Source: a virus (lineage: Duplodnaviria > Heunggongvirae > Uroviricota > Caudoviricetes). Taken from it: a stretch of 64,000 nt of DNA. A program made the position numbers and the translations under genes. The notes under the pieces were generated by a model. That model saw only the letters and a list, made by a program, of their open reading frames with translations, was not told the DNA's origin and searched no databases. How positions within the stretch are numbered: position 1 is the first letter of the stretch; each line of letters opens with the position of its first letter. Location: positions 93,946 to 157,945 of the IMG/VR virus record IMGVR_UViG_3300028898_000252. One strand, written 5' to 3'. Positions 39,521-53,956 of this stretch are shown here, piece after piece.

Positions 39521-40240
39521 TTATTTTTCCTTTTTATTAAAGTTTTTTGCCATTTCTAAAAGAGTGTTATAATGTTCTTTTTTTAGATTTTTGTTTTCGT
39601 TCATAACAACTGTTTGTGCAGGTTTTAGTTTTGTTAAAGATTTTTGTTTTGGAGTGGAGGAAACTTGTTTGTCTTCCATAAATGCTTTTGGTGTAGATGG
39701 TTCGGTAACAATATCCCAACAGATTATATGAAGATCATCTGATACTACATCCGCGACAATTCCTTCTGGTAAAGTTTGTCGACTAATTGAACCCATAGCT
39801 CTAGAAGAAATTCCAATTTTTCCACCTGTTTTAAGTGCGCCTCTAATTTTCTTATCTTCTTCTGTTTCAGGGAAAATAACTATTTCTCCATAAACAACAT
39901 CTTCTTCAAGCCAAATCCTTCTAAATCTAAAAGCAGCATGTTTAAATTCAACAACTTCACTGTCTTTGTGATCTAATTCACCGTAAGCCATTCCAGTTTC
40001 AACTTTTGTTTTTATGTACTGTTCTAATTTTGGGACAAGAACATTTCTAGGATAAACTCTTCCATTTTGATTCAGAGTATTACAGCGTTGAATTATGCCA
40101 GAGAGCACTAATGCCTCGCTAAAACTATCCAAATTCGAAATGTCTAAACTTTCGTTCAGAGAATTTTTTGCATTTTTTAAATCAAATATGAAATTTTCTT
40201 TCAAAAGAATTTTTTTTGGTTTTTTAATTACGGTTTTCAT
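39521..40240 (-). CDS. Prohead protease (T4 gp21-like)
   Basis: NQNGRVYP; GELDH (His); GISSRAMGS (Ser); WDIVTEPST. Confidence 0.92.
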   Translation of the reverse strand: MKTVIKKPKKILLKENFIFDLKNAKNSLNESLDISNLDSFSEALVLSGIIQRCNTLNQNGRVYPRNVLVPKLEQYIKTKVETGMAYGELDHKDSEVVEFKHAAFRFRRIWLEEDVVYGEIVIFPETEEDKKIRGALKTGGKIGISSRAMGSISRQTLPEGIVADVVSDDLHIICWDIVTEPSTPKAFMEDKQVSSTPKQKSLTKLKPAQTVVMNENKNLKKEHYNTLLEMAKNFNKKEK

Positions 40241-41107: not shown

Positions 41108-43159
41108 TTATTTATTGTTTCTAGAAATTTTATTATAGAATGGCTTAAAATCGCCGCTATCGATTTCAATTTCAACTTCTGAATTTTCATCCTCTTCTTT
41201 TTTCTTAGATTCATTTAAAAGCTTGTTTAAGTTTTTCAAACTAGAGACTACTTCTTTATAAACTCCAGAACTTGGAATATTGCTAGAATTTAACTCTTTA
41301 AAACTTTCTTTTATAAGAGTTGAATAATGATTATCGCGGTCTTTTGAAGTTTCAAATTCTGTTTTTTGAGATGAAACCATATTCATTCCATAGTAAGGAT
41401 TAATAATTTGTTTGTTGAAGTTAGAGGTTTTGACCATAGAAGGAAACATTTTAGAAGGAACAAAATAATTTGGACTTATTGGTGCTTTTTTATCTGGAAT
41501 GTTGACTTTCACAATTTCAGAATCAGAAATGTCAATATTAGGAACGGTTTGTAGGTCTGCTGCAACTGTATTTTGCGGTAATTCAGCATTTCCCTGTTGT
41601 GGATTTTGAATCATTCCTGAACCTGGAACATCATAGTTTGCTGGATCAAATTGATCGGGTTCTTGGCCTGGTTCATTTTTTACAGGCTGTAGAGCTTCAA
41701 ATGTTTTATTTCTAATTGTATCCTGCTCTCTGCCTAGACGAATTCTGATTATGTCAGCATCATTAAATCCAAAAATCTCTTTTTGAATAACTTCTTCATC
41801 CACATGAGGAATGTCTTTTGCTTTGCCAGCTATATCAAGTTTCTTTTCCCAAAGTTCCAATTTTTGTAACACCGCAGCTGTACTTGGATTGGTTAATTTT
41901 AAATTAAAGTTAATTAAATCTTCGCCGTCAAAACCTTTTGCATATAGATGCAACATCGCCATACGTTTTAATTCTGCTAAAACAATTCTTTGTATCGCAG
42001 AAACAGTTTTTGAAAATCTTATATCTTGTGCAGATAAGTTGTTTTTGCCAACAGCTTCATCGTAGCCCAAAAATGCTCTTGGCATTTTAAGAGCGGCAGT
42101 TAATTGTTTGTGAACAAAGGCTATGTCATCAACAGCGGTTTGATGAGTTGCGCCTTCTAAAGTATCAACTTTTGTTAAAGAATCTCTTTTAATTGGTATA
42201 AAGTAGTTTTCTAACATAGAAGAAGGATTCCAGCGATAATCTTGTCGTCCATCATTGTTAGAAACTATACTTTTTGCATTGAATGATTCTTCAACTTTTT
42301 TCATAAATGTTTCAACATCATTTGGGTTAATACCTGTTGTATCAATATAAAACATTCTTCTTGCTGGAGATCTTACAATACGATAAGTTAACATCGCATC
42401 CACCAACATCATTAATACTCTATATGGTCTTCTTGCTCCATCTAACCAACTTGTTCCATGTGGTCTATAAGCATCGTTAGATAAAAATCTAAAATTGGCA
42501 ACTTGGAAATTTTCCAAATAAGAAGAATTTTGTGACGAAGGATTTTGAATATTAGGAGTTGTTATTTTGAATCTAACAGCATTAGGATCATTTTTATCAT
42601 ACTTTTCTTGTCTTTCACAATCGGGTGCAGGAATTTGTTCGATATTGATTATTCCTTCGCGTTCTCTAATATCTAAAAACAAAAAGAAGTCGCCAAATTT
42701 AAGCATACTTCTAACCCAGTATCTTAAATCAGAATTTAATTTGCAAACATCAAAAAAAAGTTCTTCCAAACTCTTTCTTATTTCAATTGAATCTGTTTCT
42801 ATGTGTAACATTTGATCATTTTGATCGACCGCGCAAATTTCATCTGCCAAACCATCTAAAGCGGTTGCGCATTCTGGTGATTGTGCATCCATGTCAATAT
42901 ATTCTCTGTAGCGATAAATTCGATCATATACTCCAAAATATCCCATACCAACAAATCCAGAATAGCTATGCCTATACGCGTTATAACTTGGATAACCAAT
43001 ATTTCCTTGAAGTGCTAATTCCTGTGGAGTTGCAAGATTTCCATAATCTAAACCTTTTATTTTTCGATTAATATTTACCCCAGAACGAAAAAGATTCGCT
43101 ATTCTTTTATAAAATTCTAGCGTCCTATTAACAACTTCATTTTCTTTAGTATCTGACAT
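41108..43159 (-). CDS. Portal protein (T4 gp20-like)
   Basis: YIDMD...ALDGLADE; WVRSMLKFGDFF; DAMLTYRIVRSPARRMFYIDT; ENYFIP; ALKMP; DIRFSKTV. Confidence 0.93.
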   Translation of the reverse strand: MSDTKENEVVNRTLEFYKRIANLFRSGVNINRKIKGLDYGNLATPQELALQGNIGYPSYNAYRHSYSGFVGMGYFGVYDRIYRYREYIDMDAQSPECATALDGLADEICAVDQNDQMLHIETDSIEIRKSLEELFFDVCKLNSDLRYWVRSMLKFGDFFLFLDIREREGIINIEQIPAPDCERQEKYDKNDPNAVRFKITTPNIQNPSSQNSSYLENFQVANFRFLSNDAYRPHGTSWLDGARRPYRVLMMLVDAMLTYRIVRSPARRMFYIDTTGINPNDVETFMKKVEESFNAKSIVSNNDGRQDYRWNPSSMLENYFIPIKRDSLTKVDTLEGATHQTAVDDIAFVHKQLTAALKMPRAFLGYDEAVGKNNLSAQDIRFSKTVSAIQRIVLAELKRMAMLHLYAKGFDGEDLINFNLKLTNPSTAAVLQKLELWEKKLDIAGKAKDIPHVDEEVIQKEIFGFNDADIIRIRLGREQDTIRNKTFEALQPVKNEPGQEPDQFDPANYDVPGSGMIQNPQQGNAELPQNTVAADLQTVPNIDISDSEIVKVNIPDKKAPISPNYFVPSKMFPSMVKTSNFNKQIINPYYGMNMVSSQKTEFETSKDRDNHYSTLIKESFKELNSSNIPSSGVYKEVVSSLKNLNKLLNESKKKEEDENSEVEIEIDSGDFKPFYNKISRNNK

Positions 43160-46426: not shown

Positions 46427-49081
46427 ATGAATATAACTGATACTTTGTTAAATAAAACACATCAAGATGTCGTTTTCGGCGAAAAAGGTCAAAAGGAATT
46501 GCTTAAAGGAGCAGAGATCCTTTATAAAGCTGTTAAATCTACAATGGGACCATCTGGTCACAATGTTATTATCGACAATGGAATATCTCCACCTTTTATT
46601 ACAAAGGATGGAGTCACCGTAGCTAAAAACATTAATTTAAAAGATGATTTGCAAAACATTGGAGCTGAACTTGTTAAAGAAGTCGCATTAAAAACCAATG
46701 AACTGGCTGGAGATGGTCCTCAACCCCTTTATGCTAAGGTTTTGACACCCAGCGGTTGGAAACCAATGGGAGAATTAAAAATTGGAGATGAAATCTGTGG
46801 AACGAACAACACTATTCAAAAAGTTGTTGGCATTTACCCAAAAGGAAAAAAAGAAATTTATCAAATTAAATTTTCTGATGGCCGAACAGTTGAATGTTGC
46901 GAAGATCATCTTTGGACAATAACTGATTACGCAAACAATAAAAAAACAATTCCAACAAAAATAATGAAAGACGATTTCTATAAACATAATCGTCATAAAT
47001 ACTATGTTCAAACTACTCAAGTCGAATTTATCAATAAAGAAAAACTTAAAATTGATCCATACACTTTAGGAGTATTACTTGGAGATGGTAGTTTATCAGA
47101 AAAATCAGATGTTGAAATTTCTGTGGGTCTAAAAGAAGATTACATCTTAGATCAGTTGGTTTTGCCAGAAAACTGCAAAATACGAAAACGTTATTATACA
47201 GAAAATAAACATTTCATAAAAGCAACTATTACTGGTAGTCAAAGAAAAAATCGGCCAGTTAAAAGTCATAAATCTATAATAAAACTAATTTTAAAAGAAT
47301 TAAATCTACTTGGCAAAAATAGTCATTCTAAATTCATTCCAAAAGAATATTTATATTCCTCAAAAGAAAATAGGCAAAAATTATTAAATGGTTTAATTGA
47401 TACAGATGGGTCGATTAATAAAAAAGGTTTGTTTGAATTTAGCACAGTAAGTGAACAATTATGCAAAGATTTCGTTGAGCTTTGTCGAGGGCTTGGAAAA
47501 ACAGTATATTGTTATAAACTAAACAGAAAAGAAAACAGTGCTTATGGGAAAAGTCCAATTTATAGAGTTAGCGAATTGAAAGGATATAAAGGTGGAATAA
47601 AAATTACAGATATTCGAAAAACAAATCAATATACTGAAATGCAGTGTATAAAGGTAAGCAATCCAGATAATTTGTATATTACAGATGATTATGTCGTTAC
47701 ACACAACACTACAACTGCCACTGTATTAGCATATAATCTTTTTAATAACGGTTATAAACTTTCTTCTGCGGGAAGAGATTCTATTGCACTTAAAAAAGGA
47801 ATCGATTGGGCAACAAATGTTGTCATTAGTCGTTTAAAGGAAATCGCAACTGAAGTTAGAAATGATGAAGATATCATCTCTGTTGGAACAATATCGGCAA
47901 ATGGTGATAGAGAAATCGGAAAATTACTTTGTGAAGCAATAAGAAAAGTTGGAGAAGATGGAATTATTACGGTCGAGAAAGCTAAAAGTGTTAAAACAAC
48001 ACTTAGTGTTATTGATGGTCTTAGTTTAGAAGTTGGGTATGTTTCGCCTTTTTTTGTTACCAATCAAGAAAAACTAACATCGGAACTTGAAAAACCATAT
48101 GTTCTTGTAACGAATAAGAAAATTTCTACAAAAGAACAACTTATTCCAGTTATGAGTATTGCTAATGAAAAATCTAGACCTTTATTGATTATAGCCGATG
48201 AAATCGAACAAGAGCCACTCCATATGTTGCTCACAAATAAAATGCACGGTGCAGTTATTTCTTGTGCTGTTAAAGCTCCTTCTTATGGAGATAACAGAAT
48301 TGACATTCTTCATGATATTTGTTTGGTAACAGGCGCGACTTGCTTTGATGCCGCACAATCAATTCAGCTTGAAAAATTAAAAGAAGAACATTTAGGATCT
48401 TGTGAAAAAATAACCATTTCAAAAACTCAAACAACTTTGTTTGGTCTTGGAGACACAGTTAAAAAAGAACAAGTTGACGAAAGAATAAAAGAACTTAAAC
48501 AAACTTTACTATTACCAGTTGATGGGTTAGACGACTTAAAGCGGAACAATATTAAAAAACGTTTAGCCAAACTTGCAGGTGGTATTGCCATCATCCATGT
48601 TGGCGGTTCAACAGAAGTAGAAATAATTGAGAAAAAAGACAGAGTAGATGATGCTTTGAATGCTACACAGGCAGCAGTTCAAGAAGGAATATTACCAGGA
48701 GGAGGAACAGCACTTTTCTATTGCGCGGAATTTCTAAATTCAGAGATTCAAAAAAATGAAACTAAATTAAATGAAGACGAAATTTTTGGTGCAAAAATTG
48801 TATATGAAACTTGCAAAACTCCATTGAAAGTAATCGTCGAGAATACAGGAAAGAACCCAGAAGTTATTATGAATGAATTAGCAAGAGCAACAAACTCTAT
48901 TAATTTCGGTTATAATGCCTTTAGTCACAAATATGAAAACCTAGTTGATAGTGGAGTAATTGATCCAGTTAAAGTTACTAGATATGCACTTGAATTTGCA
49001 AGTTCGGTTGTTGGATTAATGCTAACATGCAACTGTGTTATTTTAACACCAGAAGAAGAAAGAAAAAAGGAAGAAGAATAA
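46427..49081 (+). CDS. groEL: Chaperonin GroEL precursor containing an intein
   Basis: TMGPSG; ITKDGVTVAK; AGDG|TTTATVL; ISANGD; GGSTEVE...KDRVDDALNATQAAVQEGILPGGG; GVIDP.KV; 554 aa after splicing. Confidence 0.95.
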   Translation: MNITDTLLNKTHQDVVFGEKGQKELLKGAEILYKAVKSTMGPSGHNVIIDNGISPPFITKDGVTVAKNINLKDDLQNIGAELVKEVALKTNELAGDGPQPLYAKVLTPSGWKPMGELKIGDEICGTNNTIQKVVGIYPKGKKEIYQIKFSDGRTVECCEDHLWTITDYANNKKTIPTKIMKDDFYKHNRHKYYVQTTQVEFINKEKLKIDPYTLGVLLGDGSLSEKSDVEISVGLKEDYILDQLVLPENCKIRKRYYTENKHFIKATITGSQRKNRPVKSHKSIIKLILKELNLLGKNSHSKFIPKEYLYSSKENRQKLLNGLIDTDGSINKKGLFEFSTVSEQLCKDFVELCRGLGKTVYCYKLNRKENSAYGKSPIYRVSELKGYKGGIKITDIRKTNQYTEMQCIKVSNPDNLYITDDYVVTHNTTTATVLAYNLFNNGYKLSSAGRDSIALKKGIDWATNVVISRLKEIATEVRNDEDIISVGTISANGDREIGKLLCEAIRKVGEDGIITVEKAKSVKTTLSVIDGLSLEVGYVSPFFVTNQEKLTSELEKPYVLVTNKKISTKEQLIPVMSIANEKSRPLLIIADEIEQEPLHMLLTNKMHGAVISCAVKAPSYGDNRIDILHDICLVTGATCFDAAQSIQLEKLKEEHLGSCEKITISKTQTTLFGLGDTVKKEQVDERIKELKQTLLLPVDGLDDLKRNNIKKRLAKLAGGIAIIHVGGSTEVEIIEKKDRVDDALNATQAAVQEGILPGGGTALFYCAEFLNSEIQKNETKLNEDEIFGAKIVYETCKTPLKVIVENTGKNPEVIMNELARATNSINFGYNAFSHKYENLVDSGVIDPVKVTRYALEFASSVVGLMLTCNCVILTPEEERKKEEE
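46718..47707 (+). mobile_element. Class-3-type intein with LAGLIDADG endonuclease, 330 aa
   Basis: Starts PQPLYAKVLTP; block B DHLW; LGVLLGDG and LNGLIDTDG; block F MQCIKV; ends VVTHN|T. Confidence 0.9.
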
Positions 49082-49084
49082 ATA

Positions 49085-49405
49085 ATGGAAAGAGTAATGC
49101 TTGGCAGACGCCAACTAGATAAAATAATACCTGAAAAAATACCAGTATATGATGCTAGAATGGAAAATAATGAAATATTCATTGACCAAGGCGGACACGG
49201 ATTTTTATCTGTTGCGGGTGGAATTGATGCAGGAGAAACAGGAGAGATTACAGGATTACCAATAAAAGTTTACAAATCAACATTAAAAATGATTGATAAA
49301 AGTGAAATTATGGCAGGAAGTGAAACAACGAGCGCTTTTCCAGTATATCTAGACAAATATAAAAGAATTGTTTGGGTGCCTGCCGATTTTGTACATATGA
49401 TCTAA
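49085..49405 (+). CDS. Hypothetical protein
   Basis: 106 aa ORF directly after groEL; no recognisable GroES motifs. Confidence 0.65.
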   Translation: MERVMLGRRQLDKIIPEKIPVYDARMENNEIFIDQGGHGFLSVAGGIDAGETGEITGLPIKVYKSTLKMIDKSEIMAGSETTSAFPVYLDKYKRIVWVPADFVHMI

Positions 49406-50790: not shown

Positions 50791-51219
50791 ATGAGTATTT
50801 ATAACGTTTCTGCGGGCTATGGATTTACTCCAAATTATCAACTGTCTGGTTTACCATATGTTACTGGCGTAGGTGTCGTTTCTACAAGATATAAAATAGA
50901 ACTTCCATATGTTTCCCAATGGATTTGTTTTAGATTTACACAAGCGGCAAGAACAGCTTTTATTTCTTTTGACTCATCTGGTTCTCCTACTAATAATATT
51001 ATGAAAATTGAATCAAATTCTTCAAATATGTTTTTTGGTCCATATTATCTGAGAATAAAAGATCTTTATATCGAAAATAGTAATGGCGTTCATGTTATTG
51101 CTGGTCTAACGTCTATTCCAAGAAATGGCGTGCCAAGTTTAGTATCCCCTGTAAACAGTTCAATTACAGGAAGTTTATCTGTTGTCGATACAAATTATTT
51201 TATTTATCCAGGTATTTAA
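50791..51219 (+). CDS. Small beta-rich virion protein, paralog 3 of 3
   Basis: TPNYQLSGLPYVTG...LPYVSQWI...TNYFIYPGI. Confidence 0.75.
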   Translation: MSIYNVSAGYGFTPNYQLSGLPYVTGVGVVSTRYKIELPYVSQWICFRFTQAARTAFISFDSSGSPTNNIMKIESNSSNMFFGPYYLRIKDLYIENSNGVHVIAGLTSIPRNGVPSLVSPVNSSITGSLSVVDTNYFIYPGI

Positions 51220-53312
51220 TCTTTTAAAAGATCTGCTATCGACAAACCAAACATTTTTAACCCAGAAACTGATTGTTTTGTGTTTGGTACATTTTTCTGT
51301 TCTTGATTAAGAATTTCTTTCGATAAAGTTTCTTTATGCAAATTCACATTATTAACATCTGATGATTTAGGTTTTATTGCATTTAAAAATATATCTTGCC
51401 ACGACAAACCATTTGAGTTTTGTTTGTTTTTGCTAAGACCAGTAGGTTCATAAATTAATAAAGCAAAAGATAAGGACATGATCGAATCATCAAATTTTCC
51501 TCTTAGCGCTTGGGTTTTTTTGCCATTCCAAACAAATGTATCTAATTCTCTTGCAAATCTTAAAGAATTAATTTTTAATAGCTTGTTTCTTAAAACGTTT
51601 TCTAATTGAGACAGTAACCTTTCTCTAGATTTTGGAGATGTTGTATGTCCTGGATAAATATTTTCTTTTTCTTCATCTGACATAAGATGAATATTTTCCA
51701 TTATTTTTTCATCATAATAAAGATTTGGGTATTTAATATCTCTTAGTTTAATGGCTGCGGCAATTCCAATTGAATTAAGTTCACAAACAATTTTACCAGT
51801 ATTATACTTATATCCATACTCGGCAACAAGTTCTGCAAACTTGTCTGGTGCCATTTTTCCATAAAATTCTGCAACCTGTTCATCCAAAGTTGTATCAATA
51901 ATATGGCAACAAGAATGATCTTCGCCATCTCCCCTTGCTATATCACAAGATAAAATATATTTATGATTTTCTTCTGGTTGAGCCCATATCCAAAAATCAT
52001 TGTTTTTTGCCTCTTCAGAAATTGGTGAAGTTATATTAGATTTAATCCACTCTATAGTATCTGCATCGAAAAATGTATTTCCAGAACCTTCAAATCCGCA
52101 GCAATATTCTTTATCAATCTTTTTCGCATCCATTGATTTGGTTTCATTTTCAAACCATTTTTCATCTCTATCTGGGTGTACTTGCCACGGTAATTTAACT
52201 GCGTGAAACCCATTAACTCCAACATCTTCACAATGTAAACCAATTCTATCTTTTCTCATTTCTTCAGTATTGGCATTTTTATAAATTTCGTAAAATTCGT
52301 TTTTGCCATTCGGAGAAGAAAATAAAATCGCATCGCCACCTGTTGTAATCGTTGGTCGGGCAGCTTCCCAAATATCTGAAAATTTTTCGATGTGGGCACA
52401 ATTAGAAGAAATGAATCCATTAGTAAAATATTCATTTCCTAGTTCAACATTCAATAAATCATATAATTCAATATCGGAAATAATTTCCTTAATACTTAAA
52501 ACTTCCCCAACATTTAATAATGTATCACCGACTTCCAGAAAATTTGCTTCGACAAATTCGTTTTCTGTAATTTTTACTTTATGTTCATAAGAACATTTCA
52601 ATTCAGCTTTTTCTGTTTTTATTAAAAGGTAAGATTTTTTTTCAGTTTTTTTAATACCAGTAAAATTACTCCATCCACTTGGAGTTAGAACTTTATAATT
52701 TTCATGCTCCATTCTTTGAAATTCTTTCCAAAGATCTTCTATCTTTTTCTCAAAAATAAGATTCAACTCTTCTTTTTTTAAATAAATAACAGAATCTCCA
52801 GACACACATTCATCAATGATTAACAAAGAACAAGCAATACCGCGCACGCTTTCTGGCGTTGTTGGTATCGCCTCAATTTTAGAACCATTTGTAAATTCGA
52901 TATATTTAACAGATTCTTTTTCTGTTTCTGTCAAACCCAACATTGTTTTAATCCACGGAGGAACATCCTTAAACGCGATTCGAATTTTTTGAATCATGTT
53001 TTTGGCAGTTTCAAGTCTTGTGGCCATTAGTCTAATGTCTTTATCCATATGAAACATCGCATACCAAAGACAATAGGCCGACGTAATTGTACTTAAACCA
53101 AGCTGCCTAGATTTAACAACAATATTATATTTAAATTCTAAAAAATCATTTATACAGTCTTCTTGGAATGGATATAATTTTAAAGGAATTCTTCCTTTAA
53201 CTGGGTGTTGGATGTATATATAATTTTTTATAAAATAAATTGGATCTTCTTTGCAGCGCTGTAGTTCTTGAATCTTTATCGAGGCTTGCGCTTTCTGTGT
53301 ATCATTTGCCAT
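51216..53312 (-). CDS. terL: Terminase large subunit with intein
   Basis: LYPFQ; KSRQLGLS; LLIIDE|CAH; LFSSPNG; nuclease SCDIARGDGED...CELN...DDSIMS. Confidence 0.93.
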   Translation of the reverse strand: MANDTQKAQASIKIQELQRCKEDPIYFIKNYIYIQHPVKGRIPLKLYPFQEDCINDFLEFKYNIVVKSRQLGLSTITSAYCLWYAMFHMDKDIRLMATRLETAKNMIQKIRIAFKDVPPWIKTMLGLTETEKESVKYIEFTNGSKIEAIPTTPESVRGIACSLLIIDECVSGDSVIYLKKEELNLIFEKKIEDLWKEFQRMEHENYKVLTPSGWSNFTGIKKTEKKSYLLIKTEKAELKCSYEHKVKITENEFVEANFLEVGDTLLNVGEVLSIKEIISDIELYDLLNVELGNEYFTNGFISSNCAHIEKFSDIWEAARPTITTGGDAILFSSPNGKNEFYEIYKNANTEEMRKDRIGLHCEDVGVNGFHAVKLPWQVHPDRDEKWFENETKSMDAKKIDKEYCCGFEGSGNTFFDADTIEWIKSNITSPISEEAKNNDFWIWAQPEENHKYILSCDIARGDGEDHSCCHIIDTTLDEQVAEFYGKMAPDKFAELVAEYGYKYNTGKIVCELNSIGIAAAIKLRDIKYPNLYYDEKIMENIHLMSDEEKENIYPGHTTSPKSRERLLSQLENVLRNKLLKINSLRFARELDTFVWNGKKTQALRGKFDDSIMSLSFALLIYEPTGLSKNKQNSNGLSWQDIFLNAIKPKSSDVNNVNLHKETLSKEILNQEQKNVPNTKQSVSGLKMFGLSIADLLKD
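52401..52808 (-). mobile_element. Mini-intein (136 aa, no endonuclease) in terL
   Basis: Starts CVSGDS; block B CSYEH; ends YFTNGFISSN|C; inserted directly after Walker B. Confidence 0.88.
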
Positions 53313-53326
53313 TACTTAATTCTCTA

Positions 53327-53956
53327 TTAAAGATAAAAATACTCTGAAAATTTTTCGGCGGACTTTGGGGTAGATGCTATAATAATTCTACCGTGTGGAT
53401 AGACTGTAAGTTTCGCCATTTCAAAATGCTCTTCAAAATTCTCAATAAAATCCGCTTCATCAAAAATAACTGTATCAAAATTAAAGCCGCGGAACGCATC
53501 AACTGCAAGTGCCAAAATTGTTATTGAAGATCCATTGCTTAGGTTCATTTTTCTAGTAGTTGAAACTTCAACTTTCGCTAAATTTTTAACATGCTCTGGC
53601 AACAGATCATACTGCCATTTAAGTTTTTCTAGAAAAAATTTCCCACTTGAAAAACTTGTTCCCATAAATCCTATTGTTTTTCCAGAGTTGAATAATATTT
53701 GATGGAGAGTAAAGGCAACAAGAAAATTAGTCTTGCCAACTTGCCTCATCCCTAAAAGATAATCTCCCTTTTGGTGCTTATTCAGACTTTTATCAAAAAA
53801 CTGTTGATAAAAATTGAAAATAAATGGAATTTTACCTTTAACTGGATGATGTATGTGCAGGCACTCTTTTGCAAAGAGCTCTAAGTCTTCCTCATATTGT
53901 TTAATTTTATCTTGAATTTCTTTTTTTTCTAGGTTTTTAATACATATAATAGACAT
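53327..53956 (-). CDS. Stand-alone terminase ATPase-domain paralog
   Basis: HPVKGKIP (TerL HPVKGRIP); MRQVGKT; RGFNFDTVIFDEA; IIASTP; no nuclease domain. Confidence 0.85.
   Translation of the reverse strand: MSIICIKNLEKKEIQDKIKQYEEDLELFAKECLHIHHPVKGKIPFIFNFYQQFFDKSLNKHQKGDYLLGMRQVGKTNFLVAFTLHQILFNSGKTIGFMGTSFSSGKFFLEKLKWQYDLLPEHVKNLAKVEVSTTRKMNLSNGSSITILALAVDAFRGFNFDTVIFDEADFIENFEEHFEMAKLTVYPHGRIIIASTPKSAEKFSEYFYL

Follow-up and report, generated by a model that had tools for sequence, protein, structure and literature searches.

A putative class 3 intein with a LAGLIDADG endonuclease domain in the ATP-binding loop of a phage GroEL

We analyzed a stretch of 64,000 nucleotides of a virus of the Caudoviricetes (IMG/VR record IMGVR_UViG_3300028898_000252, positions 93,946 to 157,945), referred to below as the window. 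Positions 46718-47707 of the window very probably constitute a class 3 intein that is functional and carries a LAGLIDADG homing endonuclease, located in the GDG/TTT loop of the GroEL of a large T4-like phage from wastewater and activated sludge (here and below, the slash marks the point of insertion). An intein at this site had been proposed in a first-pass annotation of the window, and its coordinates proved exact, both by codon reading and by a 990-bp indel between natural alleles.

A 990-bp in-frame insert in a phage GroEL gene

The open reading frame (ORF) at 46427-49081 (+) encodes a protein of 884 amino acids (P0001), of which the first 97 and the last 457 residues form the GroEL portion, with 330 residues between them. 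The N-extein (46427..46717, +; 97 aa) ends with AGDG, and the first residue of the C-extein (47708..49081, +; 457 aa plus stop) is Thr+1 (47708-47710), which belongs to the phosphate-binding triplet TTT. Both flanks match the NCBIfam GroEL models. NF009487 scored 574.9 bits on the 884-aa ORF (cut-off 352), while the equivalog model TIGR02348 reached 572.1 bits, slightly below its cut-off of 582.1, with the insert still in place. The GroEL profile breaks at approximately position 86/87, which is the insertion point, and the C-extein matches it from positions 84/87 through the end. An intein-less allele of the gene (P0125) aligned over its full length with solved GroELs (E about 1e-130), and the GDGTTT loop is intact once the insert is removed, which places the host protein in the group I chaperonins (GroEL/Cpn60). 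The Asp of AGDG is the Mg/ATP-site residue equivalent to Asp87 of E. coli GroEL.

The insert comprises 990 bp or 330 codons, is in frame, and lies between GDG and TTT of the phosphate-binding loop. It runs from codon 98 (CCT, Pro), whose first base is 46718, to codon 427 (AAC, Asn), whose last base is 47707, and ACT ACA ACT for the TTT triplet comes next; the residues at the two junctions are ...NELAGDG / PQPLY...VVTHN / TTTATVLAY. The 330-residue insert reads PQPLYAKVLTPSGW...DDYVVTHN. Its boundaries are corroborated by P0125, which was found in a search with the C-extein. This allele is 94% identical and has 554 residues, i.e., 884 minus 330. It is located on contigs of 68-95 kb that are syntenic with the window (T4-type portal, five small genes, GroEL, a 106-aa ORF, terminase). 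Comparison of the window with the DNA of one of these contigs (L027; about 83% identical overall) revealed a single gap of exactly 990 bp at 46717/8-47706/7. Since this natural empty allele aligns with solved GroELs, removal of the insert restores an ordinary chaperonin.

A boundary one residue earlier (GD/G...) was ruled out, because the intein-less allele reads GDG-T. An intron was ruled out by the in-frame insert, by the intein motifs, and by contigs from an RNA library that cross both junctions of a mini-intein allele described below. The intein has a GC content of 29.5% compared to 33.6-34.4% in the exteins, a difference that gives no sign of a recent foreign origin.

Splicing domain, endonuclease and proposed mechanism

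The intein (P0002; 46718..47707, +; 330 aa) consists of a class 3-type splicing domain into which a LAGLIDADG homing endonuclease is inserted. Its N-terminal HINT lobe (46718..47047, +) is supported by phmmer matches to 6riz and 6rix and by conserved residues. The lobe opens with Pro1-Gln2-Pro3 (46718-46726) and contains Cys27, Cys60 (46895-46897) and the DHLW motif (46907-46915), which provides His64 (block B:10; 46907-46909) and Trp66 (block B:12; 46913-46915). Blocks F and G form the C-terminal HINT lobe (47588..47707, +), with Cys310 of the MQCI motif (F:4; 47645-47647) as the predicted initiating nucleophile and Thr328-His329-Asn330 of VTHN (47699-47707) in block G. The LAGLIDADG domain between the two lobes (47048..47587, +) was recognized by Pfam, by Foldseek and by its conserved Asp residues. 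Motif 1 (LGVLLGDGSL; 47066-47095) includes LLGDGS at intein residues 120-125 with Asp123, and motif 2 (LLNGLIDTDGSI; 47381-47416) includes LIDTDGS at residues 226-232 with Asp230. The domain thus has two motifs, each ending in an acidic residue, as expected of a monomeric two-motif LAGLIDADG enzyme.

According to Tori et al., class 3 inteins have a non-nucleophilic residue 1, a triplet of Trp (B:12), Cys (F:4) and Thr (G:5), termed W-C-T, and Thr or Ser at +1 (PMC2807308). The insert fits this definition, as the first-pass annotation had stated on the basis of the initial Pro, the triplet in DHLW, MQCI and VTHN, Thr+1 and the two LAGLIDADG motifs, all of which we found to be present. Residue 1 corresponds to Pro98 of the precursor, a boundary set by the 990-bp indel, and is hence none of the nucleophiles Cys, Ser or Thr. 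Trp66, Cys310 and Thr328 align to Trp67, Cys124 and Thr143 of MchDnaB-1, and His329 and Asn330 to its C-terminal His and Asn (PMC7664689); His64 and Trp66 align to the block B His and Trp of solved inteins. Pro1, Gln2, Pro3, Cys27, Cys60, Cys310, Thr328, His329 and Asn330 are invariant in an alignment of 114 inteins of the chaperonin clade. In the same set, His64 and Trp66 are conserved in all except one sequence (113/114), the endonuclease residues Asp123 and Asp230 in 112, and Cys61 in 69%. A larger set of 195 chaperonin inteins has Thr+1 throughout and Pro1 in 191 members, the remaining four having Cys. Cys-start sequences (CQP...; P0305, P0309, P0328, P0335) keep Trp, Cys and Thr and are possibly intermediate between class 3 and class 1.

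The fold is consistent with this assignment. The closest sequence matches among solved structures, identified with phmmer, were gp41-1 (6riz, E 2e-10), followed by MchDnaB-1 (6rix, 6riy) and Msm DnaBi1 (6bs8). An AlphaFold2 model of the intein built from 56 homologs had a pLDDT of 93.4 and a pTM of 0.91. In Foldseek searches, the whole model matched PI-SceI, TliVMA and PI-PfuI (E 1e-16 to 1e-10), and the HINT lobe matched MchDnaB-1 and the M. smegmatis class 3 DnaB intein with target-normalized TM-scores of 0.75-0.84. The middle domain matched I-DmoI-type LAGLIDADG enzymes and PI-SceI. Together with a match to the hedgehog domain 1at0, these hits to solved inteins identify the HINT fold.

We infer the steps of splicing from the homologous inteins MP-Be DnaB, MchDnaB-1 and Msm DnaBi1. 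Translation would yield an 884-aa precursor with a split ATP site. Since Pro1 is no nucleophile, the block F residue Cys310 would attack instead: its thiol is predicted to attack the Gly(-1)-Pro1 peptide bond, aided by His64 and Trp66, giving a thioester branched intermediate. The N-extein would then be transferred to the hydroxyl of Thr+1, and cyclization of Asn330, assisted by His329, would free the intein. A final O-to-N shift would restore AGDG-TTTAT and thus a 554-aa GroEL able to assemble and to bind ATP. As the insertion lies between the Asp that binds Mg (the Asp87 equivalent) and the Thr triplet that binds phosphate, the precursor itself is presumably unable to bind ATP, and we infer that splicing is obligatory for GroEL function. 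During co-infection, the endonuclease of the freed intein would cleave the conserved GDGTTT-coding site of chaperonin alleles that lack the intein, and the intein would be copied into them in the course of repair.

Three observations weigh against a functional, mobile class 3 intein. First, the Pfam Hint and Intein_splicing models score under their cut-offs, and recognition of the intein therefore draws on its relatives, motifs and fold; the LAGLIDADG models exceed their thresholds for the intein alone (LAGLIDADG_3 with 23.2-24.1 bits, cut-off 22.5; Hom_end with 21.6, cut-off 21.1). Second, a graft of the W-C-T triplet onto the class 1 intein gp41-1 gave no efficient splicing (PMC7664689), so that the triplet alone is no proof of mechanism. 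Third, comparison of the window with the intein-less allele revealed no high-identity co-conversion tract beside the insertion, and the genome hence bears no trace of very recent homing.

Distribution, allelic variation and alternative readings

The intein belongs to a family that is widespread in metagenomic viral chaperonins. A search with the intein part only retrieved more than 110 clusters (at 90% identity) of Cpn60_TCP1 proteins of 850-930 aa, whose inteins are 50-63% identical. In a profile search of 1.84 billion representatives, 6,910 matches were obtained at E <= 1e-30, and the best 150 of these were mostly proteins of 800-940 aa with the intein at about residues 85-100. E-values of the intein profile against more than 100 other chaperonins were 1e-100 to 1e-150, far beyond chance. 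In total, we retrieved 267 metagenomic viral chaperonins with a homologous intein at the GDG/T site. Four of these hosts are true thermosome subunits (NF041082, 587-678 bits, cut-off 450) encoded on virus-like contigs. In these (P0377, P0062, P0083, P0106; contigs including L030 and L031), the intein is located at the homologous GDG/TT site. A fifth, incomplete thermosome copy was found on a contig of a Nanoarchaeia metagenome-assembled genome (MAG; L023:2515-3294). A single-sequence scan of 185,579 species genomes yielded no match to the intein in cellular genomes, and the copies at the chaperonin site that a profile scan recovered were confined to short MAG contigs (5-8 kb) of probable viral origin.

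The histories of the inteins and of their hosts are decoupled. Inteins of thermosomes and of GroELs are about 55-66% identical, compared to about 20% for the hosts. Relative to the window protein, extein identity ranges from 87% down to 24%, with intein identities of 52-64% over this range. Across 18,915 pairs, extein identity extends from 14 to 100%, and the inteins are mostly 50-65% identical; some pairs share 19% in the exteins and 66% in the inteins, others 96-100% and 55-70%, respectively. In a FastTree phylogeny of the inteins, those in chaperonins form one group relative to relatives hosted by PhoH (support 100). The thermosome-hosted inteins appear in two places among the GroEL-hosted ones, corresponding to two switches between GroEL and thermosome hosts. 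In the extein tree of 370 chaperonins, presence or absence of the intein changes at least 34 times, of which 29 changes are forced by well-supported branches, and the empty allele P0125 is nested among the intein-bearing nearest kin of the window gene. These tree counts are indicative only, given that the way in which the sequences were found biases the sampling and that FastTree issued a long-branch warning.

Close relatives also carry shortened and broken versions of the element. A GroEL 99% identical to that of the window (P0124) has a mini-intein of 185 aa, and one 88% identical (P0127), present on 24 contigs, has a mini-intein of 157 aa. In both cases the LAGLIDADG domain is replaced or deleted. 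Truncated or split genes and split inteins were ruled out for P0127 (711 aa) and P0124 (739 aa), which contain contiguous mini-inteins. In L003:2721-5374 (P0129; on a 185-kb IMG/VR contig, 87% identical), a frameshift just ahead of LAGLIDADG motif 1, at the start of the endonuclease, divides the gene into ORFs of 211 and 664 aa. It is a plain frameshift, which excludes a split intein or gene, and could represent real decay or an assembly error. Empty sites are found in P0125 and P0130, intein-less close relatives at 94% and 70% identity; sites of the P0130 type read GDGTTTAT. Where the window has GDG/TTTATVLAYN, P0125 (L027:6001-7665) has GDG-TSTSCVLAYH, that is, four amino acid changes within 10 residues of the site. 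TSTSC occurs once among 109 intein-less relatives and may be a target site resistant to the homing endonuclease.

The sequence recurs in metagenomes that several studies obtained from bioreactors, activated sludge and wastewater. A second study yielded activated-sludge contigs that match the window without differences and span both junctions. One wastewater run contained pieces of the full intein as well as a contig in which 46916-47616 are replaced by 266 other bases, i.e., a mini allele with the joint 46915->47617. Metatranscriptome contigs span both extein-intein junctions of the mini allele, which argues against removal at the RNA level, with the caveat that DNA may have been carried over into the library. 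Overall, empty, mini and full alleles coexist at 94-99% extein identity, and with full, mini, frameshifted and empty alleles among the closest relatives the chaperonin intein looks actively mobile, as judged from sequence comparison.

We considered whether the intein could in addition act as a conditional switch, as the first-pass annotation had raised. Oxidation of Cys310 or zinc binding, perhaps involving Cys27 or Cys60, would keep the phage chaperonin inactive until reducing conditions prevail. There is precedent in class 3 inteins: Msm DnaBi1 forms a reversible Cys48-Cys118 disulfide trap under oxidative stress (PMC6195587), and N-cleavage of MchDnaB-1 is reported to be inhibited by H2O2 (PMC7664689). 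Besides the catalytic Cys310, Cys27 and Cys60 are invariant in the chaperonin clade, in which Cys61 is frequent as well. Furthermore, the insertion splits the ATP site, so that splicing is necessarily an on-switch. However, empty and mini alleles in the closest relatives and the repeated presence/absence flips are a better fit to a dispensable parasite, and such frequent loss and gain among near-identical hosts argues that the intein is mainly parasitic. We therefore regard redox gating as unlikely. It is improbable that the chaperonin-specific class 3 inteins, which have spread through viral GroEL and thermosome genes, have been kept in some lineages as a redox- or stress-sensitive splicing timer of chaperonin activation during infection, with splicing dependent on an exposed catalytic Cys and the two other invariant Cys residues. 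The data are consistent with a selfish homing element whose splicing is required for a working GroEL.

A different splicing route, such as a class 2-like attack of Thr+1 on the N-terminal junction or the use of another nucleophile with a purely structural Cys310, is even less probable. Pro1 rules out class 1 and leaves class 2 compatible, and the mechanism was assigned from sequence. Known KlbA-type class 2 inteins use Cys+1. They are without the W-C-T triplet (PMC2807308), whereas Trp, Cys and Thr are invariant in the family described here and correspond in alignment to catalytic residues of class 3 inteins proven by experiment. Equally remote is a dead relic that does not splice and leaves the GroEL copy as a pseudogene or a non-chaperonin protein: the frameshift within the intein of L003 shows decay in this lineage, but in the window the frame is intact over 884 codons, all catalytic residues of intein and endonuclease are present, the exteins are strongly conserved (99% identity to P0124, 94% to P0125), and the identical sequence recurs in several independent studies.

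Genomic setting and relation to known inteins

The GroEL gene lies inside the head-morphogenesis block of the window, together with genes for a head protease (39521-40240), the portal (41108-43159) and the terminase (two ORFs, 51216-53956), a position that fits a role in the folding of capsid proteins. The large terminase is represented by adjacent ORFs of 698 aa (51216-53312, -) and 209 aa (53327-53956, -), each of which matches TerL profiles in their N-terminal ATPase part. The relative L027 has the same arrangement, and it may reflect a gene that was split, duplicated or interrupted. No family in PHROGs or Pfam was matched by the ORFs immediately next to GroEL. One of them, encoding 106 aa (49085-49405, +), starts 4 bp past GroEL; its position is kept in L003 and L027, with an ORF of 115 aa in L010, and its product could be a candidate chaperonin partner.

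The virus record comprises 172 kb with an estimated completeness of about 50%. At least five other genes of this record, situated outside the window, also bear inteins, in regions at about 93.8-95.1, 115.5-116.8, 135-138, 153.6 and 162.6 kb. One of these genes encodes a DNA polymerase III alpha-like protein with several class 1-type inteins (CLGEDSW...SHN/S).

The type of intein is already known; what we rate as new are the chaperonin as host protein with its insertion site and the wide, unrecognized distribution. At the time of their study, Tori et al. knew class 3 inteins in helicase-like proteins and terminases (PMC2807308), and with the later survey only helicase-like proteins, terminases and PhoH have been described as hosts (PMC2807308, PMC4760082). 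Our literature searches found no description of an intein in GroEL, chaperonin, Cpn60, Hsp60 or thermosome, and such hosts also go unmentioned in the main text of the large survey of Novikova et al. (PMC4760082). Among 50,697 deposited phage genomes, no GroEL covers the intein. The nearest inteins in these genomes are at most 35% identical and reside in SNF2 and DnaB helicases, primase-helicases, terminases, GyrA and an RNA polymerase subunit. These results agree with the suggestion of the first-pass annotation that a chaperonin host is unusual. Its further proviso, that the reading would be refuted if the site proved common and already described, applies in its first half, since the site is common in viral chaperonins including the four thermosomes, but not in its second, as we found no description of it.

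Intein surveys list replication, repair and nucleotide-metabolism proteins as hosts, with P-loop ATPases favored. The chaperonin lineage, which is large, diverse and apparently active, extends the rule that inteins target nucleotide-binding loops beyond P-loop proteins, to another ATPase fold and to machines of protein folding. One mobile element links bacteriophage GroEL and viral thermosome genes, for which the GDGTTT-coding sequence is the sole common target. With its full, mini, broken and empty alleles, the family forms a natural series that lends itself to studies of the homing cycle, and it offers new class 3 inteins with Pro1 as well as LAGLIDADG enzymes that presumably recognize a universally conserved chaperonin sequence. 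For annotation, this means that hundreds of database entries of 850-930 aa named GroEL are unrecognized intein precursors.

Compared by its published description, the MP-Be DnaB intein of mycobacteriophage Bethlehem, the class 3 prototype (PMC2807308), shares with the GroEL intein Pro1 and the Thr-His-Asn end followed by Thr+1. Its His65/Trp67 and block F:4 residue Cys320 correspond to His64/Trp66 and Cys310, and its length is 341 aa compared to 330 aa. Both inteins are phage-derived, bear an endonuclease, and lie in a loop that binds nucleotide phosphates. In MP-Be DnaB this is the P-loop of a DnaB helicase; the GroEL intein instead occupies the GDGTTT loop of a chaperonin, which has a different ATPase fold. 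The HINT lobes of MchDnaB-1 (6rix, 6riy) and Msm DnaBi1 (6bs8) superpose with that of the GroEL intein, and their Trp, Cys, Thr, His and Asn align. In contrast, Msm DnaBi1 has Ala1 and Ser+1 and lacks an endonuclease (PMC6195587), MchDnaB-1 is a mini-intein of 130-145 residues, and both are found in cellular DnaB. The split intein gp41-1 (6qaz; engineered W-C-T variant 6riz), the top sequence match in the PDB, resembles the GroEL intein in its N-terminal strand pattern, in a Cys at the position of Cys60 and in its THN end. It differs in being of class 1 (Cys1, Phe at B:12, Asp at F:4), in being naturally split and in its location in the phage gp41 helicase.

The class 3 PhoH/P-loop inteins of Mycobacterium and Deinococcus-Thermus (PMC4760082, PMC6195587) are members of the same sequence family with 29-38% identity. 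The signature (A/P)QPLxxKxLTP...C...THN/T is also present in PhoH of Meiothermus, Calidithermus and Acrocarpospora (RGR/T), in Walker A sites (GK/T) of terminase- and helicase-like proteins, and at a second PhoH site (LPG/T). In most of these inteins the first residue is Ala and the one preceding it Lys or Arg, and in the phylogeny they are the outgroup of the inteins in chaperonins (support 100). Up to three sites (GK/T, LPG/T, RGR/T) are occupied in PhoH and PIN-PhoH proteins (L017, L018, L020; P0300, P0314, P0324 and others), sometimes two per protein; residue 1 is mostly Ala following Lys or Arg, and Pro following Gly.

More distantly, PI-SceI (VMA1), TliVMA and PI-PfuI share the two-domain architecture (query-normalized TM-score 0.6-0.69), and PI-SceI is likewise located in an ATPase, the V-ATPase subunit A. 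These three inteins are only 11-17% identical to the GroEL intein and possess extra DNA-recognition regions. They belong to class 1 with Cys1, consistent with the C1A constructs among the structure matches, whereas the GroEL intein begins with Pro1.

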